This document shows, in pieces, positions 5,707 to 63,900 of a stretch of 64,000 nucleotides of DNA. Source of the stretch: Salinibacterium sp. (GTDB lineage Bacteria; Actinomycetota; Actinomycetes; Actinomycetales; Microbacteriaceae); the NCBI GenBank assembly GCA_019638845.1, contig JAHBSZ010000008.1:11790-75789 (forward strand), in the 5' to 3' direction. The position numbers were made by a program, and so were the translations under genes. The notes below the pieces were generated by a model. The model had not been told where the DNA came from and searched no databases. It was given only the letters and a program-made list of their open reading frames with translations. Each line of letters begins with the position of its first letter. Position 1 is the stretch's first letter.

Positions 5707-5716
5707 CTCTGAGAAT

Positions 5717-5768: not shown

Positions 5769-5787
5769 CCCTACAAAATCCCTACAA
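5769..5787 (+). repeat. Tandem CCCTACAA direct repeat, candidate integrase arm-type sites
   Basis: CCCTACAA at 5769-5776 and 5780-5787 (11-bp period), overlapping the integrase stop next to attL. Confidence 0.5.
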
Positions 5788-6868: not shown

Positions 6869-7240
6869 GTAGGCCCCCTTCAAGAAGATCGTAAACAATG
6901 ACGGCGTCACGGGTTGTTCGCAATAATTGCTCACGACTGCCGTCGCCTTTGCGATGCGGTGTGACGGACATCTCACGATGCGCACGCCAGAGTCCGGAAC
7001 GGTTCACGATTACTCGGCCAAGAACCTGCCGATGGCGTACACGCTCGAACCGACGGCATCACATTCCTAGCGGTTGTCGTCGGCGCCATCGGACCTAAAG
7101 TCTCCTCCTTAACTTCCCTCGTCTTGGCCTGCATGCGCTATCACGGCACCGCACGAGATTAGTTCGACCAGCCGTTCGCCGCGACGACGAGCCCTGTCGC
7201 GCCGCGAAGTGAGCATTCTCCGAGCTGCGGGGTCTGTCTT

Positions 7241-22367: not shown

Positions 22368-22623
22368 GAAGGCTCCCGCACCGTACGATGCAGAGAAGAG
22401 TTGGCGTCTGCACCGTCGGTTGGTGCGGGTCGGCCAGGCTCTCATGCTGGCCGGTGCCGTGGTCGCTATCACGCACTGGCTGGCGCACCTCGAGGCGTTT
22501 GGTCCGGGACAGCCTCCCGGGTGGCTGGACCTTGCGGCGGGCTACCCAATGGGCGGCATACTGCTTGTCTTCGGCGCGATCCTCGCTGGAAGAAAACGTC
22601 CCACATCCAACCCTCGAACATGA
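22351..22623 (+). CDS. Small two-TM hypothetical membrane protein
   Basis: 90-aa ORF with GAAAGG RBS, overlapping the resB end. Confidence 0.6.
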   Translation: MNPKNKKAPAPYDAEKSWRLHRRLVRVGQALMLAGAVVAITHWLAHLEAFGPGQPPGWLDLAAGYPMGGILLVFGAILAGRKRPTSNPRT

Positions 22624-22805
22624 TCGAGAACTTCTGGCTCAACGCATTATGGTCGCTGGCGCCCACAGTCATGGTCGGACTGATCTTCTGGTTAGTCATC
22701 AGGTCGATCATTCATGCGGACCGCAACGAGCGGAAAGCCCAAGCGAAGGTAGAGAGAGAGGAACGCGCGAAGTTCGCCGCTAGCAGGAAGGTAGCTGATG
22801 GGTGA
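22620..22805 (+). CDS. Small single-TM protein (paralog of 30778-30957)
   Basis: MIENFWLNALWSLAPTVMVGLIFW...ADRNERK; ATGA coupling on both sides. Confidence 0.75.
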   Translation: MIENFWLNALWSLAPTVMVGLIFWLVIRSIIHADRNERKAQAKVEREERAKFAASRKVADG

Positions 22806-23541
22806 CGGTGTGGTCGACACCATCGTCAATGGGCAGCTCGTGCTGGCCATCCTGCTTGCCACCCTTGCGGGTTTGATCTCGTTCGCGTCGCCTTGCGTTC
22901 TTCCCCTGATCCCCGGCTACCTCGCTTACGTCGGTGGCATGGCGACAACGGACGGGCGTGCATCAAGAAGACGAACCGTCATCGGAGTTGCCCTCTTCGT
23001 TCTCGGATTCGCGATGGTTTTCGTTGCCTACGGTGCCGCATTCGGCTCCATCGGACTGTGGCTCCTGCGGTGGGAAGATCTGCTCACCCGCGTGATGGGA
23101 GCGTTCCTGATCGTGATGGGGGCGGTGTTCGTTGGCGCGATTCCCTGGATGCAGCGCACAGCGCGAATCCCGCTGTCACCCCGTGTGGGGTTGGCCGGTG
23201 CTCCACTGCTTGGCATCGTCTTCGGATTTGGTTGGACACCATGCCTCGGCCCCACGCTTGCCGCCATCTCCGTCCTCAGTTTGAATTCAGGCTCACCGTG
23301 GCGCGGTGCCTTACTTGCCTTCTTCTACTGCGTTGGCCTTGGCGTGCCCTTCATGCTGTCCGCACTTGGGCTGGGATGGGCCGCCTCGGCGATTGGATTC
23401 CTCAAACGCCACGTGCGCGTCATCAATATCATCGGCGGCGCAACGCTGGCCCTGATAGGTGTGCTGATGCTTACTGGCCTCTGGACAGCACTGATGTCCC
23501 AACTGCAATACATCATCGGCGGCACCGTTCTTCCCATCTGA
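22798..23541 (+). CDS. ccdA: Cytochrome c biogenesis protein CcdA (copy 1)
   Basis: SPCVLP and WTPCLGP Cys motifs; 6 TM. Confidence 0.92.
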   Translation: MGDGVVDTIVNGQLVLAILLATLAGLISFASPCVLPLIPGYLAYVGGMATTDGRASRRRTVIGVALFVLGFAMVFVAYGAAFGSIGLWLLRWEDLLTRVMGAFLIVMGAVFVGAIPWMQRTARIPLSPRVGLAGAPLLGIVFGFGWTPCLGPTLAAISVLSLNSGSPWRGALLAFFYCVGLGVPFMLSALGLGWAASAIGFLKRHVRVINIIGGATLALIGVLMLTGLWTALMSQLQYIIGGTVLPI

Positions 23542-29104: not shown

Positions 29105-30781
29105 TTGTCGACCGATCGAGAGAACAGGCAGGGAATCTCGTTGCGCACAGCTACGCACACACCGGACGTCCGCCCGGACGACCACTTCGACCAAGATCCG
29201 ACAAGCGAGGTACGTTCTCCTCGTCTGGGGCTGGTGGGGTGGCTTCGTTGGGGCTGGCGACTGCTCACGAGCATGCGCACCGCCCTGCTGCTGCTTCTGC
29301 TTCTGGCGATCGCCGCGATCCCCGGCTCTTTGGTCCCGCAGCGCACGGCTGACCCCAACGGGGTGGCCCTGATCTACCGCGAAGATCCAGCCCGGGCGCA
29401 AGTGCTCGAGTCGCTCCAGCTCTTCACCGTGTACACCTCGGTGTGGTTCTCCGCCGTGTACCTCCTCCTCTTCGTCTCCCTTATCGGATGCGTGATCCCA
29501 CGCACCCGTCACCACTGGGCTGCTCTTCGCCAGGCGCCTCCTCGCACCCCTGCCCGATTTTCGCGCCTTCCCGCAAGCGAGATCGCGAGCCTCCCCAAGC
29601 GCGACCGGAACGTGCGTGAACTCGCAGAAGACGCAGCCCTGGTGCTTCGGGCGGCCCGCTACCGGATCGCGTTCTACGACACCCCTGGCGGCGCCTCATC
29701 CGTGGCAGGCGAGCGCGGCTATCTGCGCGAGACCGGCAACCTGCTCTTCCACGTGTCCCTCATCGGTGTCCTCGTGTCCATCGCGGTGGGAGGCGGTTAC
29801 CGGTACGCGGGCCAGAGAGTCATCGTCGAGGGCGAGACATTCGTGAACGCGCGCGGCGCCTACGACACCTTCACCGCGGGACAGCTCTTCTCCGAATCTG
29901 CCCTGCCGGCGTTCTCCCTGAGCCTCGAGAACTTCGCGGTGAGCTACCTCGAGGGAGACCCCTCCAACCTGGGATTCATCACCGACTACACAGCCACCGT
30001 CCAGACCCGCACGGCCGGATCATCCGACCCGGCTTCCTCGACGATCCGAGTCAACGAGCCCCTGGCGATGGCGGGCACCGAGATCTACCTCCTCGGCAAC
30101 GGATACGCACCTACAATCGTGTTCCGCGATCCCGACGGGCAAGTAGTGCTCCGTGAAGAAATACCGTTCCTGCCGCAAGATTCGAACCTGACCAGCTTGG
30201 GTGTCGTCAAAGTTCCCGATGGACTCCGCACCCAGGTCGGCGCCATCGGATTCTTCTACCCCACACAGTCGAACCTCGAGTCGGGCGCATACACCTCCGT
30301 CTACCCCGACCTCCTCAACCCCGTCCTCACCCTGAACATCTTCACCGGCGACCTCGGCATCGACGACGGCACCCCACGATCGGTCTACTCCTTGGACACC
30401 TCAGAGATGACGCAACTCACCGGCGGGGACACCGGCACAGACTCAGTCGAGCTGCGACCGGGCGAAAGAGCAGACCTGCCCGACGGCCTCGGATCCGTGG
30501 AGCTAGTCGATGTCAAACGATTCGCGTCATTCGACATCGCCTACGACCCGACCAAACTCCCCGTCCTCGTCTTCACGCTGCTCGCGGTGCTCGGCCTCGG
30601 TCTGGGCCTGTTCGTGCCTCGTCGACGGGTGTGGTTCCGCTTCTCGTCATCCAGCGAAACCCAGGTCACCCTCGAAGCGGGCGCACTCTCCCGCGGTGAC
30701 GACCCCCAGCTCGAAGACTCACTACGCAAACTGACCCAGCTCATCGCAGACCCCCAAACCACGACGAGAGAGAAAAAATGA
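29105..30781 (+). CDS. resB: Cytochrome c biogenesis protein ResB/CcsB (copy 2)
   Basis: Colinear paralog of 20652-22367 (LTSMRTALL, GNLLFH, VNEPL). Confidence 0.9.
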   Translation: MSTDRENRQGISLRTATHTPDVRPDDHFDQDPTSEVRSPRLGLVGWLRWGWRLLTSMRTALLLLLLLAIAAIPGSLVPQRTADPNGVALIYREDPARAQVLESLQLFTVYTSVWFSAVYLLLFVSLIGCVIPRTRHHWAALRQAPPRTPARFSRLPASEIASLPKRDRNVRELAEDAALVLRAARYRIAFYDTPGGASSVAGERGYLRETGNLLFHVSLIGVLVSIAVGGGYRYAGQRVIVEGETFVNARGAYDTFTAGQLFSESALPAFSLSLENFAVSYLEGDPSNLGFITDYTATVQTRTAGSSDPASSTIRVNEPLAMAGTEIYLLGNGYAPTIVFRDPDGQVVLREEIPFLPQDSNLTSLGVVKVPDGLRTQVGAIGFFYPTQSNLESGAYTSVYPDLLNPVLTLNIFTGDLGIDDGTPRSVYSLDTSEMTQLTGGDTGTDSVELRPGERADLPDGLGSVELVDVKRFASFDIAYDPTKLPVLVFTLLAVLGLGLGLFVPRRRVWFRFSSSSETQVTLEAGALSRGDDPQLEDSLRKLTQLIADPQTTTREKK

Positions 30782-30957
30782 ACCTCGACAACTGGTGGCT
30801 CAACGCCCTCTGGTCGTTGTTGCCGACCGTTCTGGTGGGGCTGATCTTCTGGTTCGTCATCCGCGCGATCATCAACGCCGACCGCAACGAACGGAAGATG
30901 CTGGCCAAGGTGGAAGCCGAGGAGCGAGCCAAGCTGGCGAAGGAGGCCGAGAAGTGA
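30778..30957 (+). CDS. Small single-TM protein (59 aa, paralog of 22620-22805)
   Basis: MNLDNWWLNALWSLLPTVLVGLIFW...ADRNERK; coupled to the resB stop. Confidence 0.78.
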   Translation: MNLDNWWLNALWSLLPTVLVGLIFWFVIRAIINADRNERKMLAKVEAEERAKLAKEAEK

Positions 30958-35892: not shown

Positions 35893-36638
35893 ACCCGCTC
35901 GGGGAGTTCTTTGCGCAGACAGCGATGTCTGGTGCTCTCCTGCTTGCCATTCCGGTCGCCGCCGTTGCAGGCCTCGTGTCGTTCCTGTCGCCCTGCGTCC
36001 TGCCGCTAGCCCCAGGGTTTCTCGGATACGTCTCCGGGATGACCAGCACCAATGCGCCTGACAGGCGCAAAGTCGTGCTTGGAACCGTGCTCTTCATCCT
36101 CGGCTTCTCTCTGGTGTTCATCGCCTACGGTGCGGCATTCGGCGCCATCGGTGCATGGCTCACGCAGTGGCAAGATCTGCTCATCCGAATTCTCGGCGGC
36201 GTCGTGATCGTCATGGGTATCGCGATGCTTGGTGCCATCCCGATCCTGCAGCGCACAGCTAAACCGACTTGGAAACCTCGGCTCGGCCTCGCGGGCGCGC
36301 CACTGCTTGGACTCGTATTCGGGCTGGGCTGGACGCCCTGTATCGGCCCGACCCTCAGTGCCGTGGTTGCGCTCAGCCTCACGGGCGGATCCAGCGTCCG
36401 CGGCGCCGTTCTCGGCCTCGCATACTGCATAGGTCTCGGCTTGCCATTTCTTGCTCTGGCCCTGGGTTGGCAATCAGCCACGTCAGCGATCGCTGCACTT
36501 CGGCGCCATGTCCGCCTCATCAACACCATCGGAGGTGCCATCTTGATCACGCTCGGAATCCTGATGATCAGCGGCCTGTGGGGCAGCCTCATCCGAGCAG
36601 TGCAAGGCCTCATCGGATCATTCGCGGTGATCCTATGA
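35889..36638 (+). CDS. ccdA: Cytochrome c biogenesis protein CcdA (copy 2)
   Basis: SPCVLP and WTPCIGP motifs. Confidence 0.92.
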   Translation: MNPLGEFFAQTAMSGALLLAIPVAAVAGLVSFLSPCVLPLAPGFLGYVSGMTSTNAPDRRKVVLGTVLFILGFSLVFIAYGAAFGAIGAWLTQWQDLLIRILGGVVIVMGIAMLGAIPILQRTAKPTWKPRLGLAGAPLLGLVFGLGWTPCIGPTLSAVVALSLTGGSSVRGAVLGLAYCIGLGLPFLALALGWQSATSAIAALRRHVRLINTIGGAILITLGILMISGLWGSLIRAVQGLIGSFAVIL

Positions 36639-49027: not shown

Positions 49028-49200
49028 CCGTTCGTTTGGGTACTCACCCATCGCGACCACCCAAACGAACGGAAATGCCCTGTTTTCCCCTGTCCCCCCG
49101 CCAATGCCTGGCAGAGCCAGCTTCCCAACCTCCCGCACCCAACAAGTTGTCCACGGGAGGTTGGGAAGTAAAGCAGTGGCGGGGGGACAGGGAAAAACAG
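49028..49200. repeat. Tandem long inverted repeats, oriT candidate
   Basis: 14-bp perfect IR 49028-49041 / 49059-49072; nested 28-bp (2 mismatches) IR 49080-49107 / 49173-49200 and 15-bp perfect IR 49121-49135 / 49154-49168. Confidence 0.6.
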
Positions 49201-51862: not shown

Positions 51863-52750
51863 TCAGCGCAGGCGGTCGGCATCCTTGATCGACGTCACCA
51901 AGGACACGTAGTGCTGCTGGGCGAGCCGGTGGCAGCCGGCACTGAACGGCGAGGTGATCGGACCCGGCACGACGCCGACCGGACGGTCCATCGCGTGCGC
52001 GGCCTCCGCCGTGCGCAGGGCACCGGAGGACAGGCCGGCCTCGACGACGATCGTCTTCACCGTCAGGGCGGCGAGCAGGTACTTCGCCCGACGCTGCGCA
52101 CGGACGGTCAGCTGACCGCCGGGCGGCAGCTCGGAGACGGCGACACCCTTCGTGACACGGTTGCGGGGCTTGTCGAGCGACGCAGCGGCGACGGTGATGC
52201 CGCGACCGCGCATCGCGTCGGCCCCGCGCAGGGCGAGCTGATCGATGCCCGATCCGGCGCCGGCGGCGATGACCCAGCCGCGCTGCGCCAGCCCCGTCGA
52301 CAGTTCGATGCCCATATGGATCCCGTACCCGGTGGGGCTCGCCGTGCCGGTAAGCGCGACCGATGGGTTGAGCAGGATGCCGGGGTCGCCGTCCACCCAC
52401 AGGACGGTGGGGGCGATGCCGCGCAGGGACTCGAGCTGTGTGGGCCACAGCTCGCACTCCGGGGTCAGGATCCCGAAGCCGTGCGCCGCGGTGCCCTCGA
52501 GCACCCGCGCCACCCGGCTCCCGATGGCGAACGCGCGAATGCGCTGCCGCACCAGGTTCGACAGCGCCAGCGCCTGGTCGTTGCCGGCGTGGACCGCCGC
52601 GACGAACTGGGCCGCACCACCCAGTGCGTGGATGCCGACGTGCACGGAGGGTTCCCCGCTGACCCCGGCGCACGCCAGGGCCACTCGCGCGGCAGTGTCG
52701 TCGTCCACCCGAGTCGAGGTGGTCGCGATGGTTGGAAGTGAACTGGTCAT
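51863..52750 (-). CDS. dprA: DprA/Smf-like ssDNA-binding protein
   Basis: PTVLWVDGD, GID, VVEAGLSSGALRTA and VPGPITSPFSAGCHRL motifs; no C-terminal wHTH. Confidence 0.82.
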   Translation of the reverse strand: MTSSLPTIATTSTRVDDDTAARVALACAGVSGEPSVHVGIHALGGAAQFVAAVHAGNDQALALSNLVRQRIRAFAIGSRVARVLEGTAAHGFGILTPECELWPTQLESLRGIAPTVLWVDGDPGILLNPSVALTGTASPTGYGIHMGIELSTGLAQRGWVIAAGAGSGIDQLALRGADAMRGRGITVAAASLDKPRNRVTKGVAVSELPPGGQLTVRAQRRAKYLLAALTVKTIVVEAGLSSGALRTAEAAHAMDRPVGVVPGPITSPFSAGCHRLAQQHYVSLVTSIKDADRLR

Positions 52751-52776
52751 GGTCGTGCAGTCCTCTCAGAGCGATC

Positions 52777-52919
52777 GTTTTGTTTGCCTTCCGGCAGAGA
52801 GATCGAGTGCGAGAGGACGAGGCGTAGTGCGCAGAATTTCGGGCGAAATAAGCCCGCAGGGCGCGTCAGAGAATCTGCGAACGCAGCAGAGGACAGAGCT
52901 ACGATCGGCAGCCGGAAAG
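52777..52919 (-). promoter_or_regulatory. Structured upstream element copy A (ssDNA-promoter-like)
   Basis: CTTTCCGGC...GATCTCTCTGCCGGAAGGCAAACAAAAC upstream of dprA; homologous to copies B and C. Confidence 0.6.
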
Positions 52920-53089
52920 TTCAAACAAACATCCAGAAACACCGCCGCGCAGCGGCGTCCCACATGGCGCCGACCTGTCGGCGCTCACCACGCGCAGCGC
53001 CTACCGCTGACTTCTCTTCCGCGACCCGCACCCGACAGCCGCACCTTCCCCACGGACCAGGACGCACTCAACGGAAAGGAATCGCGCCC

Positions 53090-54214
53090 ATGACAACCAG
53101 CACCCCCACCAAGCAAGAACCCCGCGCCTTCGCCGGCGCAGCCCGCGCCGCCTCCTACATCGAGGCCAACGACGCCCCGGCAGTCACGGAGACCACTCCG
53201 TCGGCTCCGCCCGCCGTCACCGCGATCGAACCCGAGCCGATCCTCGAGACCGACCCCGTTATGGAGTTCAAGCAGGAGGAGGACATCGACCTCGGTGCCC
53301 TCTCCGTCGCCGCCCCACCCCGCACCGCCCAGAGGGGCCTGCGGGGGCTGCTCGGGAAGGTCGGCGTGAAGGTCGCGCCCGGCGCTGCTGAGACCGCGGA
53401 GCTTCAGACCGCGCAGGAGCTGGCGCGGTTCGAGGAGACCGTGCGACAGGCGACCTGGATCCGCGCGGTGTCGGTGCTCGTCGCGAACCCGAAGGGCGGG
53501 GTGGGCAAGACCCCGACATCCTTGATGCTCGGCGGGACGCTCGCCGCGATCCGCGGCGGGTCCGTCGCCATCATCGAAGTCTCCGACGACCCCGGCGCCC
53601 TCACCTTCCGCAGCGAAGGCTCACCCAACCGAGGCCTCGGCGAGCTCGTCGCCGACGCCGAGACGATCTCGTCGGCCGGGCAACTCGCCGGCTACACCGC
53701 CCCGCAGTCGTCGTTCGCGGCCGTCATCGGCTCTGTCGGATGGCGACCGCGCCTCGACGACACCGCCGTCCGCAACGTGGCCAAGGTGGTCGACGACTAC
53801 TTCGGCATCCGCGTCATGGACTCTGGCAACCAGCCCTCGTCGCCAGCGTTCGGCGCCGCAGTGATGACCGCGGACGTGCTCGTCGTGCCGATCTTCGACG
53901 CCGGCGATGCCGCCCTCGAGGCAGCGCAGCTGCTCGAGGGACTGAAGGCGGCAGGCGGGCACGCCGCGGAGCTCGCGGCGAACGCCATCGTGCTGCGACT
54001 GCACGACGGACGCCCCGAGCACCCGCAGGTCGTCGCCCGCGTCGACCGCATCCTCACCTCCCACGGAATCAGCCACCAGCACACCATCCCATTCGACGCT
54101 CACATCGCCGAGCGCGGCCAACTCACCTTGGCCAAGCTGCACCCCGCCGCCCGGCACGCCCTCACCGGCGCTGCCGCCGACGTGGTCCGCACCCTCCAGA
54201 ACACCGCACGCTGA
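53090..54214 (+). CDS. MinD/ParA-like ATPase heading the T4SS operon
   Basis: NPKGGVGKT and VMDSGN motifs; Pro/Thr-rich N-terminus. Confidence 0.8.
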   Translation: MTTSTPTKQEPRAFAGAARAASYIEANDAPAVTETTPSAPPAVTAIEPEPILETDPVMEFKQEEDIDLGALSVAAPPRTAQRGLRGLLGKVGVKVAPGAAETAELQTAQELARFEETVRQATWIRAVSVLVANPKGGVGKTPTSLMLGGTLAAIRGGSVAIIEVSDDPGALTFRSEGSPNRGLGELVADAETISSAGQLAGYTAPQSSFAAVIGSVGWRPRLDDTAVRNVAKVVDDYFGIRVMDSGNQPSSPAFGAAVMTADVLVVPIFDAGDAALEAAQLLEGLKAAGGHAAELAANAIVLRLHDGRPEHPQVVARVDRILTSHGISHQHTIPFDAHIAERGQLTLAKLHPAARHALTGAAADVVRTLQNTAR

Positions 54215-54234
54215 ACCGAAAGGACTAAGCAACC

Positions 54235-54552
54235 ATGAGCGTCATCGGTACCCTCGCGATCCTCCCCATGATCGACAACCCCCTCGACGGGATCCTGCCC
54301 GACTTCAACATCTTCGGAGTCGAGTTCACCCAGCTCTGGCAGAAACTCGTCGCCGGCCTCTGGGCCGTCGCGATCATCCTCGCCGTCATCTTCCTCATCA
54401 TCGGCGTCACCAACATGGCCACCGCCTCCTCCGGAGGCAGCCCCATGGCCTACAAGGACGCCCGCACCCAAGCGATGTGGGGCGGCATCTCCCTCGGGCT
54501 GCTGGCAGCCCTTGGCGTCATCGTGGGCGCAATCCTCGCCCTCTTCGGATAG
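54235..54552 (+). CDS. VirB2/pilin-like small membrane protein
   Basis: 105 aa with two hydrophobic helices, first membrane gene of the conjugation cluster. Confidence 0.55.
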   Translation: MSVIGTLAILPMIDNPLDGILPDFNIFGVEFTQLWQKLVAGLWAVAIILAVIFLIIGVTNMATASSGGSPMAYKDARTQAMWGGISLGLLAALGVIVGAILALFG

Positions 54553-54555
54553 GGA

Positions 54556-55236
54556 TTGAAGATGCGAGCACAAGCAACGCGCCCCCGGCGCACCTGGCCC
54601 TGGATCCTCCTGGCCGTCATCGTCCTCTCGGCGATCATTGCCGTGCTGACCGTGACCGTCTGGAATACGGGCGGCACCACACCGACCGCAGGACCCACCG
54701 AGACCACGAGCTCGACGCCCGCACCGGACGCCGAACCCACCGGATGCCTCGGCGGCGACCAGCGCGACGCGACGATGGTGCTCGCAGCCCAAGCCTCAGC
54801 TCCGCACACCTCGAATGGCGCGATCGAGGTCGCGACAGCCTTCGTGCGCTGGCTCAACCAGTACCCCTACCCGAGCGCGGACGACATCGCCGCGATTGCG
54901 AACGGGGCCATCGCATCCACGGCGCCCACCAAGGACGTCGCTGGATTCTTCGCTGGTAACCCGAACCTCTCAGGTGGACTGGTGCCTGACGGCACCGACT
55001 ACTACCTATCCACACTTCCAGGCGTCTACTACCTCGAGGCCACCGCGGCCGACGAGGTCACCGCCTCAATCGGCACCGCCCTCGTCATCGACGGCGAACT
55101 GAGCTCGACCCTCAAAGGCTCGATCACAGTCACCGTCATCTGGGAGGACAACGGCTGGAAGTTCGTGAGTTCCGAAGGAACTCGGTCGACCGAAGAGCTC
55201 TACTCGATCGGACGGCCATACACAGGAGGCTGCTAA
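54556..55236 (+). CDS. Single-TM conjugation protein (VirB8/TcpC-like position)
   Basis: N-terminal TM, Thr/Pro linker, C-terminal WEDNGWK; assigned by position only. Confidence 0.5.
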   Translation: MKMRAQATRPRRTWPWILLAVIVLSAIIAVLTVTVWNTGGTTPTAGPTETTSSTPAPDAEPTGCLGGDQRDATMVLAAQASAPHTSNGAIEVATAFVRWLNQYPYPSADDIAAIANGAIASTAPTKDVAGFFAGNPNLSGGLVPDGTDYYLSTLPGVYYLEATAADEVTASIGTALVIDGELSSTLKGSITVTVIWEDNGWKFVSSEGTRSTEELYSIGRPYTGGC

Positions 55237-56594
55237 TGGCCCACTTCGAAGACGGCGATGACGGCGGAGGAATCGGCTCGATCATCGGCGGGCTCGGCGA
55301 CGTCGTCAACGGTTTTACCGGTGCCGTGTCCTACTGGTCCGACCCGTGGGGCAACACCTTCAAAGCGCTGCAGGATGCCGCGAAGGGTCTGAGTAAAGAC
55401 GTGCTCCCGGCCCTCACCGACGCGACCCTGCCGGATCTGTCGACCGACTGGTTCCTGCGCGCATACGCGATCTCGTTCGCCGCGGCGATCTTCGTCGCCG
55501 TGGCGCTGCTCATCCCGCAGATCCTGCGCACCGCCCGCGGTGCGCAGGCCGGCCGCGACCTGGTCGACTCTGTCGGCCTCTACTTCGGGCTCTTCCTGCT
55601 CGGTGCCATGTTCGGGCCCGCGATTGGGATGCTGCTGGTCAACTTCTTCCACGCCCTCTCCAACGACATCGTCGAATGGGGACTGCGCGGCACCGTCACC
55701 GGTGTCATCGGCGACTTTCAGACGATGATCGCCGAGGCCGATCCCGTCGGCATCACCGGCGGACTTCCGATCGCAGTCCTGCTGATGCTGTGCATGCTCA
55801 TCGGTCTATTGCTGGTGTTCGCAATGCTGGTCGTGCAGCTGGTCACTCTCTACTTCACCGGGGTGCTGCTGCCGCTCGGCCTAGTGTGGATCATCGACCC
55901 GAACAAGCGCGGCTTCGGCACGAAGATCGTCTCCGTCTGGATCGGCATCCTCGCCGCCCACCCTCTGCTGTTCTTCCTGCTCGGGTTCTCGTTCATCATG
56001 ATGGCCAACTCCGTCTCCACCTTCGGCAACAACGCCAGCCTCCACTCCCTCGTGCAACTATCGGTCGCGGTAATCGCGCTGTTCCTGGCAGCGTGCTCAC
56101 CATTGCTGCTGATGAAGCTCGCCCCGGTGATCCCCACCGGGTTCGGCGGATCCAGCGGACCAGCAGTGGCCGCGGGATCGATCGGGCCGAGCAACATGAG
56201 CGAGGCCACCGCCCTTGTCGACCGCTCCGGCGGCAGCAAGTCCGGAAGCCGCGGCGCCAGCGGGTCCAGTTTGAGCACTCCGACGACGGCCGCTTCCGAG
56301 GGAGACTCGGTCACCCTCGCCGGGGCATCCGCCGCACGCGCCGGTACCAGCGCAGCCTCAGCCGGTGCGGCGACAGCGGGCGCCGCCGAAGGTACCGCGG
56401 CCGCCGCAGGCGGGACCCTGGCCGCGGCGGGAGCCGCTGAGACCGCGACTGGTGCGGGTGCCGCTATCGGCATCCCGACCCTGATTGCCGCAGCAGGCGT
56501 GATGGCGGCCTCGAAGGGTGTGCAGATGACCGAGGCCGCGGGCCACCAAGCGACCGCCGCGTTGGACGACACGATCGGAGCAGACCGACCATGA
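55236..56594 (+). CDS. VirB6/TrbL-like T4SS membrane protein
   Basis: Multi-TM core plus Ala/Gly/Ser-rich tail ending AAAG. Confidence 0.75.
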   Translation: MAHFEDGDDGGGIGSIIGGLGDVVNGFTGAVSYWSDPWGNTFKALQDAAKGLSKDVLPALTDATLPDLSTDWFLRAYAISFAAAIFVAVALLIPQILRTARGAQAGRDLVDSVGLYFGLFLLGAMFGPAIGMLLVNFFHALSNDIVEWGLRGTVTGVIGDFQTMIAEADPVGITGGLPIAVLLMLCMLIGLLLVFAMLVVQLVTLYFTGVLLPLGLVWIIDPNKRGFGTKIVSVWIGILAAHPLLFFLLGFSFIMMANSVSTFGNNASLHSLVQLSVAVIALFLAACSPLLLMKLAPVIPTGFGGSSGPAVAAGSIGPSNMSEATALVDRSGGSKSGSRGASGSSLSTPTTAASEGDSVTLAGASAARAGTSAASAGAATAGAAEGTAAAAGGTLAAAGAAETATGAGAAIGIPTLIAAAGVMAASKGVQMTEAAGHQATAALDDTIGADRP

Positions 56595-58258
56595 CCGAGA
56601 CGCAGACCCGCGCCACCGTCCGCTACCTGGGCGGCGAGACCGGGCACCGCTCGTTCTTCGGCGGCACCCACTCGAAGGCCCGCATCGCGCTGCTCGCGGT
56701 CTTCATCCTCGCCGGCCTGATCCTCACGCCGATCATCGGTTGGCCGGGACTTGCGATCGCCGCCGCCGGTGCAGGCGTCACCCTGATGGTGACGGCCCGC
56801 ACGCACCGCGGCACGGTCATGGAGCGCTCCACTCGCCGCTCGCGGTGGAAGGAGCGCGTGACCACAGGGGTCGACGCATTTGTCCCCTACGACATCGCCT
56901 CCTGGGATCAGGCCGAGCAGGCACTGCGTGACGCGCACATGCTGCGCGGCCGCGCGAAGAAGGACGCAATCTGGGAAGCGCAGCGAGTGTTGACCGCGAT
57001 GCGCGCCAACCCCGATGGTGCCGACGGCATGGGATGGCTGCAGCACGGCCGTCGCGAACCGGGTATCGCTTGGCACGCCCCGACCGGCGAGACCCAGTAC
57101 TTGTCGGCGACGTTCGTTGTCACGGGGCAGCTGCGCGGCATTGAATCCACCTCGGTCATGACCCGAGCCGCCGAAGGGTGGGGCACGTTCCTCGCCTCAA
57201 GAGCTGCTGCGTCGAACCTTGTCGGCCAAGTGCAGACGATGACCCGGGTGCTGCCCGCGGACACGGCGATGCAGGAGTTCTGGGTCGCCGGGTCCCTCGA
57301 CGAGGACGTGCCCGTCGAGGCGGTGACGTCCTATGAGGAGGTGCTACGGCTAACGGGCGAGGACGCGATGGTGCAGCGCCACTTCATCACCATCAGCTGG
57401 CCCATCACTGGGGCCTTCCGCGACACCGCCGCCAAATACGGCCACGCACGTGATGGGTGGCGTGGGCTCATGGTGCAGGAGATCGCCTCCACACAGCGCG
57501 GCCTCGAGGACGCGCGTCTCGGCACCGTCGAAATCCTCACCGCACGCCAGACGGTCGCGGTGGTGCTGCATCAGCAGAACCCGTCGCGGCCGATCGACTT
57601 CGTCGCCGACGTCGACCCCGCCCGGGCCGGCATCGCGTCGCATGACGAGTTCTCCGCCCACGTCGTCCAGGGCATCGACCCGATCACTGGGGGAGAGGTT
57701 GAGTGGTGGCATCGGACGGCGGCGATCCGCGCCGACGCGATGGCCACCGCACCCCGCACCCAGCTGTGGCTGCTGGATCTGCTGATCGGGCGGGACTTGG
57801 GCTTCATCCGCTCGGTGTCCTTCCATATCCACCTCATCCCCGCCGCGGACGCCAAGGCCGCAGCCCGGCAGGATCTGGTGCGCGATCAGGCCGAGGCGAT
57901 CTCGCGATCCGAGGCGGGCAAGTTCGACACGGACGACACCGAGGTGGCCATGACCGCCGCCCAACGTCGCCGCACCGACCTGACCGCCGGTTCCCACCAC
58001 CACGGTGCTGAGTGGATCGGCTACATCACCATCTCGACGACATCGCGGGACGAGCTCGCGAGGTCGTCGCGGCAGCTCGAGGAGACCTGCGCGGGATCTG
58101 CGGGCATCGACCACCTTGACTGGCAGGACTCGTTCCAGTCCGCCGCATCCGGCACCACTTGGCCCATCGGCCGCGGCCTCACCACGGGCGGCCGCACCCT
58201 GTCGTCCCGACTGCTCACAAGGCTCGCGGGCCGCACCGAGAAGGAGTCCCTGTCATGA
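56591..58258 (+). CDS. PrgI/SCO6880-like conjugation membrane protein
   Basis: Two N-terminal TM helices; GHHG/AEWIGY-like and Q.AA...T.P.GRG segments; upstream of VirB4. Confidence 0.65.
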   Translation: MTETQTRATVRYLGGETGHRSFFGGTHSKARIALLAVFILAGLILTPIIGWPGLAIAAAGAGVTLMVTARTHRGTVMERSTRRSRWKERVTTGVDAFVPYDIASWDQAEQALRDAHMLRGRAKKDAIWEAQRVLTAMRANPDGADGMGWLQHGRREPGIAWHAPTGETQYLSATFVVTGQLRGIESTSVMTRAAEGWGTFLASRAAASNLVGQVQTMTRVLPADTAMQEFWVAGSLDEDVPVEAVTSYEEVLRLTGEDAMVQRHFITISWPITGAFRDTAAKYGHARDGWRGLMVQEIASTQRGLEDARLGTVEILTARQTVAVVLHQQNPSRPIDFVADVDPARAGIASHDEFSAHVVQGIDPITGGEVEWWHRTAAIRADAMATAPRTQLWLLDLLIGRDLGFIRSVSFHIHLIPAADAKAAARQDLVRDQAEAISRSEAGKFDTDDTEVAMTAAQRRRTDLTAGSHHHGAEWIGYITISTTSRDELARSSRQLEETCAGSAGIDHLDWQDSFQSAASGTTWPIGRGLTTGGRTLSSRLLTRLAGRTEKESLS

Positions 58259-59700
58259 CCACTACCCAGCCCTTCCGCTCCAAGCTCTGGGACGCCCCCG
58301 TCCTGCGCGCCTTCGCACCGCCCGCCGAGCCCATGCTCGACGGCGACGAGACCCCGTTCGAAATCACCCCGTGGGGACGCCCAGGAACCCGCCTACGCAG
58401 CAAGCCGGGCGCTGCCCGTCGCGGCCGCTACGCGCCAGCGCTGGCCGGGGCACCCTCGACGACCCGGCAGGCCGAGATCCTCAACACCGCCCTCATCGGA
58501 CCGCCCACCGGCACCAAGGGTGTCGTGACCGGTCGCGACGTCCTGTCGCGGACGTCCATCGCCCACGACCCGATCACCGCCTACAACTCCACCCCGCGCG
58601 AGGTGTCCTCGCCAAACGTGATCATCATGGGCGACGTCGGCGCCGGCAAATCCACCCACACCAAGGCCAACCACGTCCTGCGCCCCCTGCTGCTCAAGAA
58701 CCGCCGGTGCGTGGTCTTCGACAAGAAGGACCAAGCCGGCGAAGGCGAGTACTCCCAGGTCGTGCGCCGCTACGGGTACGAGCCCATCAAGTTCACCCCC
58801 GACGGCACCGGCACCACGTTGAACCTGCTCGACCCGACCATCCTCAAGGGCACCGGCCTGCAGGGGCAGGCGCGCTTGCTGAACATCGTCACCCGCCTCG
58901 CCCGAGGCGACCAGCAGCTCGACTCCTGGGAAGAGGAAGCCCTGCGCGCGGCGCTGAAGATGACCGTCGAGCAGATGAAAGATGGGCGAGCCCCGGTGCT
59001 GGCGGATGCGCTGCCGAACCTCGGCCGGGTCGCCGATGACGGCGACTACGGAACTCTGTCAGTCTCCGCTCGCGACGACCTCCACAAGGCCGGCCTCTCC
59101 CTGCGGTGGACCCTCAACGGGCTCCTCGACGAATACGCGGGGCTCCTGGACGGCGAGACGTCGAAGTCGGTCGACCTCTCGGGCAAGCTCACCTCCTTCG
59201 ACATCTCACAACTCCCTGACGACGGACCCGCGGTCCCGGTCGTGATGGCGATCGGCAACATGTGGATGCTCGGCCGACTCAGGAGCGAGCGCGGCTGGGC
59301 GACCACCGTCGTCTACGAAGAGGGATGGCACATGATCGGCGGCCCCTCCGCCTCCCTGATCAAGGCCAACCAGAAGCTCTCCCGAGGCCTCGGCATCTCG
59401 AACGTGTTCGTGATGCACAAGGGCTCCGACATCCCCGCCGACTCACCCGGAATGGCCATCATCCAAGAAGCCCAGACCGTGTGCATCTACCGCCAGTCCC
59501 GGCCCGAAGACGCGGCCTGGTGCCAGCAGACCTTCGGCCTCGCCCCCGAAACCGCCGACACCATCGAACGGCTGCGTGACGGGCACTACATCTTCAAGTA
59601 CGGATCCCACCCCGAAACCCACGTGCAGCACATCCTCTCCCGGTGGGAAGCGCAGGTGACCAACACCGACGAAGCCCTAGCCGCCGCAGGACGCGTCTAG
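58255..59700 (+). CDS. VirB4-like conjugative ATPase
   Basis: Walker A GDVGAGKS, VFDKK, Walker B VYEEGWH, QKLSRGLG. Confidence 0.82.
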   Translation: MTTTQPFRSKLWDAPVLRAFAPPAEPMLDGDETPFEITPWGRPGTRLRSKPGAARRGRYAPALAGAPSTTRQAEILNTALIGPPTGTKGVVTGRDVLSRTSIAHDPITAYNSTPREVSSPNVIIMGDVGAGKSTHTKANHVLRPLLLKNRRCVVFDKKDQAGEGEYSQVVRRYGYEPIKFTPDGTGTTLNLLDPTILKGTGLQGQARLLNIVTRLARGDQQLDSWEEEALRAALKMTVEQMKDGRAPVLADALPNLGRVADDGDYGTLSVSARDDLHKAGLSLRWTLNGLLDEYAGLLDGETSKSVDLSGKLTSFDISQLPDDGPAVPVVMAIGNMWMLGRLRSERGWATTVVYEEGWHMIGGPSASLIKANQKLSRGLGISNVFVMHKGSDIPADSPGMAIIQEAQTVCIYRQSRPEDAAWCQQTFGLAPETADTIERLRDGHYIFKYGSHPETHVQHILSRWEAQVTNTDEALAAAGRV

Positions 59701-60737
59701 TGCTGAAAGCAATCGCCGTCGGCGTCACCGGCGTGCTGCTCTCACTCGTTGGCGCCGTTGTCATGTCGTCCGGCACCGGATGCACCGCCCAACCCGTCGA
59801 CGTCGACCAGGTCGCCGCCCTCGACACCGCCATCGCCGGTTACTCCGACGACCAGCTCGTCAACGCCGCCATCATCATGAACGTCGCCACCGCCCGCGGT
59901 CTCGGCCAACAGGCTCAGATCGTCGGCGTCACCACCGCCATCGCCCAGACCGGCCTGCGCAACCAAACCGCCACCGACGGCTCCACCGGGCTCGGCGTCT
60001 TCGCACAAGGGGCGGCGTGGGGAAGTGCCGAGCAGCGGCTCGACCCCGCCCACGCCGCACTCCTCTTCTATGCGCGACTCGAGCAGGTTCCGAATTGGCA
60101 GACCCTTACCCCTGCGGCCGCGGCGACCCAGATCACCGGCCACGGTGCGGCGGACTACACGGCCGCGCTGAAGCCGGCGACCGAGATTGTCTCGACGCTC
60201 ACCCCGACCGAAGGGCAGGGGTGCCAAGTATCGGGCGATTCGCAGGCTCTCGCCCTCGAGCTCGTGCAAGCGATGGACGGCGGTACCTTCACCGCGCTGA
60301 CCGATCCGGAGCAGCAGATCCGCTGGATCGCCGAGGGCCGGACCATCTCCGACTGCGGCATTGATGTGCGCACCCTGCAGGTCATGGTCCTCGCCACCCG
60401 CCAGTTCGACCGCGTCGGGGTCAGTTCAATCAACCGCCTCTGCACGCACGACGACGCAGGGGGCGGAACGCTCCCGCACGTGCGCGAAGGCGGCGGCAAG
60501 TCCGTCGACTTCTACATGCTCGACGACATACCTCTTACCGGAGCTGACGGCCTCACCCTCCGGCTCATCGGAATGCTCGACCCGATTGTCCCGGCAGAAT
60601 CCCGCATCGGCCAATCCAACTGCCGTGACGCCGACGGTGTGAATCTGGGCCTGCAGCACTTCACCGAGTTCACTGACACCTGCAATCACCTGCATGTCGA
60701 CTTCGCTGACACTGATGGAGCACTGACGGTCGGCTAG
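59700..60737 (+). CDS. Secreted cell-wall hydrolase-like protein (lysozyme-like plus putative zinc-peptidase domain)
   Basis: NAAII...TAIAQTGLRN...WG...DP...FY..L; C-terminal H...AVD-like and HLHV motifs. Confidence 0.65.
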   Translation: MLKAIAVGVTGVLLSLVGAVVMSSGTGCTAQPVDVDQVAALDTAIAGYSDDQLVNAAIIMNVATARGLGQQAQIVGVTTAIAQTGLRNQTATDGSTGLGVFAQGAAWGSAEQRLDPAHAALLFYARLEQVPNWQTLTPAAAATQITGHGAADYTAALKPATEIVSTLTPTEGQGCQVSGDSQALALELVQAMDGGTFTALTDPEQQIRWIAEGRTISDCGIDVRTLQVMVLATRQFDRVGVSSINRLCTHDDAGGGTLPHVREGGGKSVDFYMLDDIPLTGADGLTLRLIGMLDPIVPAESRIGQSNCRDADGVNLGLQHFTEFTDTCNHLHVDFADTDGALTVG

Positions 60738-60768
60738 CGCCGCCGCTTTTCCCCAAGAATCCTGCGGT

Positions 60769-60921
60769 CTTTCCGCCTCGCGATCGTAGTTCGCTTCACG
60801 CCGGCGACGAGGGCTTTCGCGGCATATCCTCCGCACTGCGTGCTGTCCGGTATTCCACGGTCCCTAGCTCGCCGTCGCTTCGCTCACCCCTGATCTCTCC
60901 TGCCGGAAAGGCCGAAGAAAC
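60769..60921 (+). promoter_or_regulatory. Structured upstream element copy B (ssDNA-promoter-like)
   Basis: CTTTCCG...GATCTCTCCTGCCGGAAAGG; 20-bp and 14-bp blocks identical to copy C. Confidence 0.62.
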
Positions 60922-60937
60922 GATCACCGGGAGAGAC

Positions 60938-61588
60938 ATGACCACCATCCACGCACGACCCGAACGCACCCCCACCGAGATTGCCGCAGACGCGGGCGCC
61001 GCTACCGAGTTCTGGCGATCATTGCAGTCGCCCGCTCGCCGAAAATGGCTCGTTCACCGTGAGAGCTACGACTACAAACTGCTCATGGCCGACAAGGAAG
61101 GCCGCGAATGGGCGCGCCGCCAGAACAAGAACGACATCGCAGGACGAGCCGCACGACGCGCTGCGCGCCTAGCGGCCGACCCCCTCGCCAACCGCCTCGA
61201 CGAGAACCTGCGCCACTATGTCGACGCCAACACCAAGGCACAGATGCCCCGAATTGCCCTGCACGGCAGGGCCAAGGGCGAGCGCGCCCTCAGCTTGCAG
61301 ACGACGTACACATGGTTCTACGGACTGAACACCCCGTCGCCTCAGCGCCGCACGCGTGTGCGCCGGGAAAGCGAGATGTTCTACGAACACTGGCTGCTGT
61401 GCAACCCGCAGTATGGGCCAGTGCGAGCCGGGGGCGAGTTGTTCGAGCACACCGTTCAGACGTGGAACTACATTCCCGGCCAGATCCGACCGGCAGGAAT
61501 GTCGCCCGAGCGCGCCCTGCAGATAGCCCTGTCCGTGCTCGACGAGAACAACGGCGTCTGGCCGGACAATCCTCCCCCATTGCTCTAA
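60938..61588 (+). CDS. Hypothetical protein
   Basis: 216-aa ORF with GGGAGA RBS directly after element copy B. Confidence 0.7.
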   Translation: MTTIHARPERTPTEIAADAGAATEFWRSLQSPARRKWLVHRESYDYKLLMADKEGREWARRQNKNDIAGRAARRAARLAADPLANRLDENLRHYVDANTKAQMPRIALHGRAKGERALSLQTTYTWFYGLNTPSPQRRTRVRRESEMFYEHWLLCNPQYGPVRAGGELFEHTVQTWNYIPGQIRPAGMSPERALQIALSVLDENNGVWPDNPPPLL

Positions 61589-61593
61589 CGGCC

Positions 61594-61627
61594 GCCGCGT
61601 CCGGAGGCTCACGCCCCCGGACGCGGC
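61594..61627 (+). terminator. GC-rich hairpin
   Basis: GCCGCGTCCGG / CCGGACGCGGC perfect 11-bp stem just after the stop; no U-tract. Confidence 0.5.
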
Positions 61628-61658
61628 TCGAACAGCCCTCCGAACCACAATCGAGCAC

Positions 61659-61997
61659 ATGGCACTCATCGCCCTTAACCTCGGTCGGCCCATCTGGCAG
61701 ATCGACCCGTGCCCACCCTGGTGCGAAGCCACACACTCGAGCGACGATCATCCCGACGACCGCGTGCACCGCAGCGAGGGAATTACAATCTCCACAACGA
61801 CCCGCCGACGCCACATCGACGGCGACCACCTCGGATCCATCGAGGAAGAAGTCGACCTCGAGGTCGGCATCGCCCGCGCCGACGGCGACACCGCGACCTG
61901 GCTCTACATCGGAGCCGGACCCGCATCCTCCGTCGAAGTACAGCTTGAAGCTGCGGACGAAATCGTAGCCGCGATCCTTCGACTCAGCGGCAGCTAG
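61659..61997 (+). CDS. DUF6907-like Cys/His small protein
   Basis: CPPWC..H...H...H motif typical of small actinobacterial mobile-element proteins. Confidence 0.6.
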   Translation: MALIALNLGRPIWQIDPCPPWCEATHSSDDHPDDRVHRSEGITISTTTRRRHIDGDHLGSIEEEVDLEVGIARADGDTATWLYIGAGPASSVEVQLEAADEIVAAILRLSGS

Positions 61998-62286
61998 ACG
62001 AATGCCATTAGCAGCGCCCACCCCGGTCAGGCCGCAGGCTGAAGCATCAGGGACTGCCGTGTGGGAAATGGCCCGCAACCGCCACCCGACGATAGGCGGC
62101 GACTGCGGAACGAATACCACCGCCTCATCCCTAAGCTGCGCCGAGGGGTCGGCTACGCGTTAGCTCACTCCCCGATCGACGATGCGCGCCGGCGCCCCGA
62201 TTGTCCAACACACCGCTAGACCCGCAGTATCGGATCCAGCTGGCCAACTGGAGCCGACGAAGGTCGGCGCGGAGCCTGTGGCTCTG

Positions 62287-62443
62287 TTGCCTTTCCGGCC
62301 GCCGACTGTAGTTCGCTCCCGGCCCTTCGTTCCCGGCTTTCGCGGCATATCCTCACTCGCTGCGCTCCCTCCGGTATTCCACGACCGGGCACTACGGCCC
62401 GTCCACTCTCAACAGATCTCTGTGCCGGAAAGGCAAACAAAAC
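62287..62443 (+). promoter_or_regulatory. Structured upstream element copy C (ssDNA-promoter-like)
   Basis: 13-bp perfect closing stem 62287-62299 / 62424-62436 with nested GTAGT/ACTAC and CCCGG/CCGGG pairs. Confidence 0.65.
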
Positions 62444-62469
62444 AGTCGATCAAAGAGAGAAGAACCAAA

Positions 62470-63900
62470 ATGACTGACACCAGCACCACCACCGGAACCA
62501 TCGAGCACGTCGACCCCACCACGGTGATCGTCGAAGCGAACGTGCGCACGACCGCGCCATTGGACAAAGAGTTCATTGCCAGCATCCGCGAGAACGGCGT
62601 ACTCACCCCCATCCTCGCCAGACGTGACGCCAGCGGGAACATCATCGTCCGCGCCGGTCAGCGCCGCACGCTCGCCGCACGCGAGGTCGGACTGGCCAGC
62701 ATCCCCGCCTTCGTAGTGGAGGCGTCCGAGGCGATCGCCGACCGCATCATTCAGCAGTTGGTCGAGAACGAGCACCGCACCGCCCTCACGGACGGCGACC
62801 GAGTGGCGGCGTTCCAGCAGCTGGCCTTAGAGGGACTCACCCCGCAAGTGATCGCCAAGCGGACCGCCACCAAACAGGTCGACGTCAAGCAGGGTCTGAA
62901 GGTAGCCGAGTCGCAGTTCGCAACGGCTGCGGTAGTCGAGCACCAGCTGACGTTCGATCAGGCGGCAACGCTGATCGAGTTCGAAGGTGACGACGAGCGG
63001 GTCGCCGACCTAATCGAGGTCGCCACGAGCCAGCCGGAGCAGTTCGCCCACGCCGCCCAGCGCGCACGAGACGATAAGGCGAGAGCGGAAGAGGTCGCCC
63101 GAATCAGCGTGGAGCTGCGCGAGCAGGGATACACGGTGCTCGACCGCGACCCCGGCTACTACGACGACACCTACATCCGCATCGGCGACCTCGTCACCGG
63201 CGAGGGCAAGCGGGTCAGCCCCGACGACCTGCCGACCGAGGGGGAGCGGTTCGTGTTCGTGCGCTCCTACATCTCCGGCAGCGTCGACGTGACCCACTTC
63301 ATCTCTGACTACAAGGCACACGGGTTCCGCAAGGACGGCAGCACCGCACCTTCCGGACCGATGACAAACGAGCAGAAGGCCGAACGCCGCGAGCTGATCG
63401 CCAACAACAAGGCATGGGCGTCAGCCGAGACAGTGCGCCGCGAATGGCTCACCGCGTTCCTAGGTCGCAAGACCCTGCCGAAGGACGCAGCCCAGTTCGT
63501 TGCCCGCGGACTTACCGGCAGCCGGAGCACAGTCGCGGACGCCATGAGCCGAGGCAACAGCCTCGCGCACACGCTGCTGGGCATCGAGCACGACGGAGGA
63601 ATGTGGAGCGGCGACAAGCTCGCGGCTCTCGTCGAAGCAAACCCCGGCAAGGCCGCAACCGTCAGCCTCGCCGTAGTGCTCGCCGGTATCGAGTCCCACA
63701 CCAGTAAGGACACATGGCATCACCCCACCCACGACATGAGTGCCTACTTCGGCCAGCTAGTCGCATGGGGCTACGCAGCCTCAGAAGTCGAGCAGATCGT
63801 GATCGATCACGATACGACCTCGACTGACGCGGACAGCGTGGACGACGTCGAGGAACACGACGACGACACCGTCGACGAGGCACCCACGGAGGACGACTAG
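62470..63900 (+). CDS. ParB/Spo0J N-terminal domain protein (plasmid leading-region type)
   Basis: SIRENGVLTPI, AGQRRTLAA, QLVENEHR and HTH segment; acidic tail. Confidence 0.88.
   Translation: MTDTSTTTGTIEHVDPTTVIVEANVRTTAPLDKEFIASIRENGVLTPILARRDASGNIIVRAGQRRTLAAREVGLASIPAFVVEASEAIADRIIQQLVENEHRTALTDGDRVAAFQQLALEGLTPQVIAKRTATKQVDVKQGLKVAESQFATAAVVEHQLTFDQAATLIEFEGDDERVADLIEVATSQPEQFAHAAQRARDDKARAEEVARISVELREQGYTVLDRDPGYYDDTYIRIGDLVTGEGKRVSPDDLPTEGERFVFVRSYISGSVDVTHFISDYKAHGFRKDGSTAPSGPMTNEQKAERRELIANNKAWASAETVRREWLTAFLGRKTLPKDAAQFVARGLTGSRSTVADAMSRGNSLAHTLLGIEHDGGMWSGDKLAALVEANPGKAATVSLAVVLAGIESHTSKDTWHHPTHDMSAYFGQLVAWGYAASEVEQIVIDHDTTSTDADSVDDVEEHDDDTVDEAPTEDD

Follow-up and report, generated by a model that had tools for sequence, protein, structure and literature searches.

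In the 64,000-nucleotide (nt) stretch of Salinibacterium sp. analyzed here (contig JAHBSZ010000008.1, positions 11,790 to 75,789; hereafter, the window), a hairpin cassette of about 165 nt occurs three times (copies A, B and C); a fourth, copy D, is located a short way past the window end, within the same integrative and conjugative element (ICE). We found that the strand antisense to the gene downstream of each cassette folds into a long imperfect hairpin, that this structure is subject to strong purifying selection, and that the apex of the hairpin in copies B, C and D is homologous to a hairpin of the F plasmid. The explanation that we consider likely is that these cassettes are single-stranded DNA (ssDNA) promoters of class 3 (ssp3), adapted to an actinobacterial host. 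By analogy with F, the element probably switches on the genes for SSB, a ParB-like protein and other establishment functions from incoming ssDNA. Class 3 itself is known; new here is an actinobacterial, ICE-borne member of the class.

The cassettes and the strand that folds

The copies in the window occupy positions 52772-52935 (A, folding strand plus), 60754-60926 (B, folding strand minus) and 62276-62448 (C, folding strand minus). An earlier reading of this DNA, made without database searches (the sequence-only reading), had recognized three related fold-back elements at these places; the three align with each other, and their relationship is beyond chance by the scores of R1, a covariance model seeded with 32 related Microbacteriaceae sequences (alignment A2), namely 63 bits for A (E 6e-12), 132 bits for B (E 8e-27) and 168 bits for C (E 1e-34). 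Copy D (G000:C12:76858-77019, equivalent to window positions 65069-65230 and outside the window) scores 82 bits. The covariance-model search of the whole 2.96-Mb genome yielded these four copies only, all within the mobile element, and the model recovered full-length relatives in Micrococcales. We compiled a wider structural alignment of 87 members (A3) and a non-redundant family set of 123 members. The common ends that had been described, CTTTCCG at one side and GATCTCT-n-TGCCGGAA(A)GG with an A-rich leader at the other, read as reported, and so does the perfect 13-bp closing stem of copy C (62287-62299 with 62424-62436). Two internal blocks, of 20 and 14 nt, are indeed identical in B and C, but copy A lacks them and carries another conserved apex instead.

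When both strands were folded, the antisense strand gave one long imperfect hairpin and the sense strand gave weaker, branched folds; for the minus strand of copy C, the single long hairpin has a DNA folding energy of -35.4 kcal/mol. With DNA parameters, the antisense strand is the more stable one in 105 of the 123 non-redundant members, by a mean difference of -4.3 kcal/mol. The stem wobbles are similarly lopsided, with 133 G·T against 21 A·C on the antisense strand among the 87 members of A3, even when the invariant tip pair (T·G if read on the antisense strand, C·A on the sense) is excluded. Moreover, in 73/123 members the antisense strand has C(GNA)G as its apical triloop, compared to 3/123 members for the sense strand. 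The very stable DNA mini-hairpins of the d(GCGAAGC) type have this motif. Taken together, the G·T excess, the triloops and the difference in stability favor folded DNA of one strand over a sense RNA leader.

These observations bear directly on the possibility, already entertained in the sequence-only reading, that the element works as RNA, that is, as a structured 5' leader, attenuator or processing site on a sense transcript from a conventional promoter. The sense strand folds too, at -44 to -58 kcal/mol with RNA parameters, and copy B starts 30 nt past the stop codon of the upstream type IV secretion system (T4SS) gene, so that read-through would cover it. However, the wobbles are on the wrong strand for a sense RNA, the tip pair would be C·A in it, the TAnnnT hexamers discussed below as well as the GNA triloops lie on the antisense strand, and the F homologue is an ssDNA promoter. 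The cassettes also match no RNA family: Rfam gave nothing at the gathering threshold in the window, and no hit up to E 10 overlapped the copies in the interval 60700-62500. We therefore regard an RNA-level function as very unlikely.

The structure is supported by extensive covariation. RNAalifold, applied to the 32 seed sequences, predicted 33 pairs, 17 of these with compensatory changes. In A3, 92.2% of the cells form pairs compared to 75.1% in shuffles, with none of the 500 shuffles reaching the observed value, and the fraction drops to 38-57% when the partners are slid along the alignment; A3 was fitted to the model, so that these pair counts lean towards the structure, but the margin is nonetheless large. 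Double, compensatory changes were detected in 32 of the 33 pairs among 86 distinct sequences. Covariation in the closing stem, on which the sequence-only reading had staked its proposal beforehand, is strong: the stem alternates cleanly among CCGG/CCGG, CTGG/CCAG and GTGG/CCAC.

The conserved tip and the class 3 promoter of F and IncI1 plasmids

Copies B, C and D share an apex of about 45 nt, tip-1, the sequence of which is almost the same across plasmids from many phyla. In copy C, tip-1 spans 62337-62383 on the minus strand and reads CGTGGAATACC, a loop with a C(GCA)G triloop, and GGATATGCCGCGAAAG, the two boxes being located at 62383-62373 and 62352-62337; the corresponding boxes of copy B are at 60859-60849 and 60829-60814, also on the minus strand, and copy D has a tip-1 with a very short apical loop. 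A BLAST search of plasmids with copy C returned 242 records, in which the central 50 nt or so are up to 98% identical in plasmids of Pseudomonas, Burkholderia, Stenotrophomonas and others, and always intergenic; in a MOBF plasmid of P. mosselii, for example, the tip precedes a hypothetical gene, ssb and a DUF932 gene. The exact two-box pattern was found in more than 119 genome contigs, which belong to Actinomycetota, Pseudomonadota, Bacillota, Saccharibacteria, Bacteroidales, Spirochaetales and Desulfovibrionales, and in 48 viral contigs. Thus, the family is not specific to actinobacteria, as had been thought from the window alone; the cassettes described here represent the actinobacterial branch of a family that crosses phyla.

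A BLAST search with the Pseudomonas version of the tip, which hit six E. coli plasmids only, had suggested no link to F; a relaxed pattern then revealed the F copy. In the F plasmid (NC_002483; L131), the tip is found at 6014-6060 as GCGGCATATTC-N25-GATATTCCACG, 107 nt 5' of a DNA methylase start, and differs from the consensus by two substitutions, C to T and G to A, that together keep one pair (C-G to T-A). R1 matches F at 6008-6061 with E 2e-4. Two further enterobacterial loci, L020 and L030, contain the exact boxes, and the flank of the F copy is shared exactly by the former and nearly so by the latter. Of 5426 complete E. coli genomes, 3430 contain the F-type element, which either overlaps or adjoins an annotated "DNA methylase". 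A literature search with the box sequences returned unrelated primers only.

Wen et al. (NAR 2025, PMC12672017) describe the class 3 ssDNA promoter as a hairpin 5' of M.EcoGIX on the IncI1 plasmid pESBL, conserved in F before the M.EcoGIX homologue, with a start site mapped in transconjugants by 5' RACE (rapid amplification of cDNA ends) and without homology to class 1; the name ssp3 is used in a 2026 preprint (bioRxiv 10.64898/2026.01.09.698686). The position of the F tip hairpin 5' of the methylase gene, where it is the sole hairpin, supports its identification as class 3/ssp3. Outside this hairpin, R1 gave one weak match in the F leading region (E 0.25), inside a ParB-family gene (L131 11539-13497), and nothing at the Frpo loci of F. 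Copy A, which carries a different tip, does not share the tip homology with F. [quoted passage not shown] By homology, the minus strand of the window is predicted to be the transferred strand here.

The resemblance to class 3 extends over several features: a long imperfect hairpin on the template strand of a downstream, presumably leading-region, gene, a tip of about 45 nt that is the same except for one compensatory pair change in F, and a location directly 5' of an establishment or anti-defense gene. The differences are that the present cassettes come from another phylum and have a lower stem unrelated in sequence, that they carry an actinobacterial TAnnnT -10 without a clear -35, and that they reside in an integrated ICE, with several copies per element, some of these with alternative tips. 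Class 1 promoters (Frpo1 and Frpo2 of F and ssi1-3 of ColIb-P9; Masai and Arai 1997) become promoters, as proposed here, by folding of the transferred strand, lose this property in the duplex, and are found before ssb and a ParB-like gene, but have no sequence relationship to the cassettes.

RNA polymerase-dependent single-strand origins, such as the minus-strand origin of f1/M13 and ssoA and ssoU of rolling-circle plasmids, are also folded ssDNA mimicking a promoter. These origins make short primers, not mRNA, and ssoA is marked by the motifs RSB and CS-6 (TAGCGT). In small viral contigs, tip-1 hairpins are found next to genes for rolling-circle initiators; the loops of the cassettes read GAGCGCAGCGAG by eye, unlike the CS-6 consensus. 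The hairpins could serve mainly as single-strand initiation or origin signals that pace complementary-strand synthesis or prime it, by way of a short primer made by RNA polymerase or a primase, with gene expression being secondary. Such a role would be in line with the dual function of Frpo, with the priming of conversion in vivo by transcripts of ssDNA promoters, with the proximity of tip-1 to genes for rolling-circle or other replication initiators in the viral contigs, and with its presence in insertion sequence (IS) elements that have no gene after the hairpin. Nevertheless, an open reading frame with a Shine-Dalgarno sequence lies near the base of the hairpin, on the strand that it would transcribe, in 77 of the 87 actinobacterial members, and the F homologue drives a methylase mRNA. 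We consider a primarily origin-like function to be unlikely, although the two roles are compatible. To our knowledge, experimental demonstrations of ssDNA promoters are confined to the F and IncI1 plasmids of enterobacteria, and a literature search found no paper on ssDNA promoters in Actinobacteria.

The tip is not the same in all cassettes. Tip-1 is present with no more than one mismatch in 61 of the full-length members, and a further member departs from it by a compensatory insertion of one pair. The remaining 16 deviate at 10 positions or more without being degenerate; most of them bear either of two different conserved apices. Tip-2, GGGCGAAATAAGCCC-GCAGGGCGCG, is present in copy A and at least four others, including those at L125:6199, L060:4854 and L025:7321, and in a variant form in two L106 copies. 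Tip-3, GCGGTTGCTAAGCG...GAGTCTGCAAATAGCG, is carried by eight members; L025:2092 and L019:3944 are also among the loci at which the apices were compared. Copy A retains the same scaffold, closing stem, leader and -10, with tip-2 (GGGCGAAATAAGCCCGCAGGGCGCG) at its apex (52815-52885), and copies of this type were found in Micrococcales plasmids only. Because tip-2 is shared and conserved, copy A represents a subclass rather than a decayed copy. At least three apices are seated on one scaffold, either intact or swapped wholesale, and no intermediates were seen. Genes encoding proteins of about 290 amino acids (aa) 3' of other copies without tip-1 were tested as DprA homologues and are not.

The near letter-for-letter conservation of tip-1 across phyla, including the unpaired bases, goes beyond what a plain promoter model explains. 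One tentative possibility, which we rate as less than even, is that the tip (CGTGGAATACC, a GNA-capped loop and GGATATGCCGCGAAAG), which is placed just upstream of the -35, is a portable ssDNA module separate from the -35 and -10 and is read by a factor conserved in all bacteria; the simplest such reader may be RNA polymerase itself or another core ssDNA-handling factor. A portable module would explain the near-identity of the tip in F of E. coli, in Actinomycetota, Bacillota, Saccharibacteria and Spirochaetales, and in small rolling-circle elements, as well as its constant abutment on the -35, the wholesale replacement of tips, and the presence of the hairpin in IS256-type and IS6-like elements.

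Tip-1 hairpins were also observed in small mobile elements of other kinds. In Bacillota, they are located inside IS elements (Lachnospiraceae L036, L015, L043 and L046/L087; Anoxybacillus and relatives L050, L099 and L105), 3-29 nt past the transposase stop codon and about 150-250 nt from the IS end, with a TTGACA-type -35 (CTGACA or TTAACA in some); the adjacent transposases are of the Zn-finger DDE IS240/IS66-like type or belong to the IS256/Mutator family. Two such IS copies in one metagenome-assembled genome are 100% identical from 253 nt beyond the hairpin through the transposase gene (1299 nt). In the small viral contigs L153 and L154 (7.1-7.3 kb, 31% GC), L164 and L147, tip-1 adjoins replication initiator genes, either a rolling-circle initiator (phrog_3419) together with an integrase or a replication initiation protein (phrog_3584), a placement that is consistent with use as a single-strand origin.

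Promoter signals, downstream genes and orientation

Each copy in the window carries a -10-like hexamer on the folding strand, at the sites and on the strands where the sequence-only reading had placed them: TACGAT in A (52900-52905, plus), TACGAT in B (60788-60783, minus) and TACAGT in C (62305-62310, minus), the latter in the 3' arm of the folded strand. In the 32-member seed, A at position 2 and T at position 6 of the hexamer are invariant and T at position 1 is present in at least 90% of the sequences, the variants being TACGAT, TACGGT, TATGAT, TACAGT, TACAAT and TAAGAT; the aligned columns read TAnnnT in 59 of the 87 rows of A3. This signal is strand-specific: TAnnnT occurs in the lower 3' arm of 70 full-length members on the antisense strand and of none on the sense strand. 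In the consensus structure, the first half of the hexamer is in an internal loop and the second half is paired with GATC of the opposite arm. At the -35 position, TTGACA, TTGCAG or TTGCCG is present in other members, including ones from other phyla; the TTGACA of non-actinobacterial members is directly beside the tip. Together with the wobble counts and the triloops, the one-strand occurrence of TAnnnT in these 87-123 relatives supports the ssDNA-promoter geometry that had been proposed from the three copies. Scans of both strands near the copies with the sigma-70 consensus found no promoter, this consensus being uninformative for a high-GC actinobacterium.

In the downstream-gene survey, we counted starts that were preceded by a Shine-Dalgarno sequence and located no more than about 150 nt from the hairpin base. 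By this measure, the 77 actinobacterial members with a downstream gene most commonly precede a gene for a ParB-like protein (15), followed by NrdH/glutaredoxin (14), a small helix-turn-helix protein (8), ArdC (7) and SSB (3); in the window copies, the distance is 12-24 nt. The genes downstream of the cassettes are establishment genes, represented here by those for the ParB-like protein, SSB and DprA. Specifically, copy C is followed by the ParB-like gene (62470-63900, plus; Pfam ParB_N 1e-8, NCBIfam parB_part 9e-15), and copy D, after 24 nt, by a TTG-started SSB gene (Pfam SSB 1.5e-16); copy A precedes a DprA-family gene on the minus strand (51863-52750; Pfam DNA_processg_A 1.3e-32). The gene 3' of copy B (60938-61588, plus) encodes a 216-aa protein without a Pfam or NCBIfam family match, and a homologue of this gene is also found 3' of the corresponding hairpin in L021.

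Within the host family, R1 matches 21 of 151 genomes and 17 of 101 genera, with one to five clustered copies each, and none in a genome of the same genus. This patchy occurrence, combined with the confinement of the copies to the mobile element, is the pattern expected of a mobile-element feature. The multiple copies, the patchiness and the location inside IS elements in Bacillota could also be taken as signs of a selfish repeat, resembling a miniature inverted-repeat transposable element, with no role for the element that hosts it. Such repeats, however, would not account for the fixed position and orientation of the cassettes relative to the start codons of establishment genes or for the strong purifying selection on the structure, and there are neither target-site duplications nor copies outside the mobile element, which makes this explanation extremely improbable.

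In the mechanism that we propose, the element would be transferred as a single strand, and the gene-antisense strand would fold at each cassette into an imperfect hairpin of about 70 bp, nucleated by the hyperstable C(GNA)G triloop and the GC-rich conserved tip. The 3' arm would act as the non-template strand, presenting the TAnnnT -10, with its T-A-C half in the internal loop, and a weak -35-like GGAAC beside the tip, and the 5' arm would serve as template. Initiation by the host RNA polymerase, carrying its principal sigma factor, would take place in the lower stem, about 7 nt beyond the -10, and the polymerase would exit into the gene. Transcripts are predicted to begin near 62425 in C, 60905 in B and 52793 in A, each within 3 nt in either direction, and the mRNA leaders would be A-rich, about 35-45 nt long, and equipped with a Shine-Dalgarno sequence. 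Synthesis of the complementary strand would then abolish the hairpin and turn the promoter off, the presumed outcome being a burst of the ParB-like protein, SSB and the 216-aa protein in the new recipient. As has been shown for Frpo, these transcripts may in addition act as primers for the complementary strand.

Apart from the fitting of A3 to the model and the extreme conservation of tip-1, several observations weigh against this interpretation. The caveat, raised from the start, that no canonical -35 is present holds for the copies in the window, which have merely GGAAC next to the tip, and the -10 of copy D has degraded to CATGTC. The orientation caveat is also real: the T4SS genes run in the same direction as B, C and D, to which copy A is reversed, and the copies could therefore not all be read from a single transferred strand. 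Similar arrangements exist elsewhere. The Herbiconiux plasmid pL3i23 has two copies pointing one way, before ParB...ArdC and before Grx-SSB, and one intact tip-1 copy reversed, before nrdH, with TTGCCG-16-TATCAT; convergent pairs of copies recur in Leifsonia loci. The four copies of Cryobacterium pP27867_1 all have the same orientation. Finally, PF03432 relaxases are absent from this ICE, its unknown proteins have no relaxase match in Pfam or NCBIfam, and no nic site was found; hence, the transferred strand is predicted solely by homology with F. The copies in the opposite orientation might be silent after rearrangement, might act on lagging-strand template while it is transiently single-stranded, or might be duplex promoters directed towards the transfer operon.

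The last of these options touches on a more general alternative, namely, that the element works in duplex DNA as an inverted-repeat operator or a cruciform, or as an ordinary promoter that fires in the direction away from its neighboring gene. The TACGAT of copy A, being on the plus strand, would point into the T4SS operon, and both copy A and the reversed Herbiconiux copy are situated in divergent intergenic regions by a transfer operon, with the -10 towards the operon. Against this, the same reasoning would have B, C and D fire antisense into the preceding genes, the divergent region of Cryobacterium has no such copy, and the asymmetry between G·T and A·C as well as the mismatched bubbles would be meaningless in a duplex. 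Accordingly, we give a duplex function little credence and retain the class 3-type ssDNA promoter as the preferred explanation.

If the cassettes are such promoters, they provide exact promoter candidates in an actinobacterial ICE and predict the transferred strand where the relaxase of an element is unrecognized. The tools for finding them are at hand, with R1 recovering full-length cassettes within Micrococcales and the two-box pattern finding the tip across phyla, where it could mark leading regions and single-strand replication signals. Of wider interest are the cross-phylum tip, the alternative tips, and the presence in IS and small rolling-circle elements; a near-invariant folded-DNA element across phyla points to a shared host interaction.

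Two sets of observations concern the transfer and replication genes of these elements. The gap that precedes the FtsK/T4CP-like gene (window 49080-49200; T4CP, type IV coupling protein) contains an inverted repeat of 28 nt, with 93% complementarity and a spacer of 65 nt, that is a possible oriT; no recognizable relaxase lies beside it, and the adjacent protein is T4CP-like. A 756-aa ICE protein considered as a relaxase matches FtsK/TraD/VirB4-type P-loop regions only and is FtsK/T4CP-like. In related plasmids, a protein of about 650 aa is encoded immediately upstream of the first hairpin (L138 12689-14638; L010 2964-4913; L187 32772-34784), with an apparently primase-polymerase-like N-terminus (a weak Pfam AEP-TOTE match, and DxD and GGRHVW motifs by eye); no homologue of this protein was found in the present genome.

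The element that carries the cassettes

All four copies are inside a T4SS-bearing element of about 64 kb that is integrated at tRNA-Ser. The attachment site is tRNA-Ser(CGA) (5620-5707, plus; ARAGORN), adjoined by a tyrosine integrase gene (5771-6985, minus; Phage_integrase 2.5e-20). The tRNA 3' end is repeated directly over 21 bp at C12 81764-81784, one base before the contig stops; the contig, which has lysS and clpC upstream, is chromosomal. From the left, the element comprises the tyrosine integrase, copper-resistance cargo, ParA, the FtsK/T4CP-like ATPase, DprA on the minus strand and the T4SS cluster, followed by B with the 216-aa and DUF6907 genes, C with the ParB-like gene, an opposite-strand gene for a 331-aa unknown protein, D with SSB, and defense-like cargo.

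The conjugation cluster between A and B (53090-60737, plus) encodes a CpaE/ParA-like ATPase, a T4SS pilin, an SCO6880-family protein, a VirB4-like ATPase and unknown proteins (Pfam T4SS_pilin 4e-7 and AAA_10; NCBIfam SCO6880_fam 2.5e-22 and conju_CD1110 1e-7), in the same gene order as in the Cryobacterium plasmid NZ_CP016283. Downstream of copy B, the 216-aa gene is followed by a terminator-like GC hairpin (61594-61627) and then by the DUF6907 gene (61659-61997; match 5e-10).

The copper and cytochrome-assembly cargo contains diverged duplications with 70-78% identity (20769-23258 compared to 29237-30938 and 36090-36355), with two copies each of Caa3_CtaG, P-type ATPase and multicopper oxidase genes among them. 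At the other end of the ICE, at window-equivalent positions 65783-69826 and hence outside the window, the genes appear from their sequences to be defense-like, and putatively encode a second ParB_N/DndB-like protein, a D12-type adenine methylase and a TIR-like nucleotide-binding protein.

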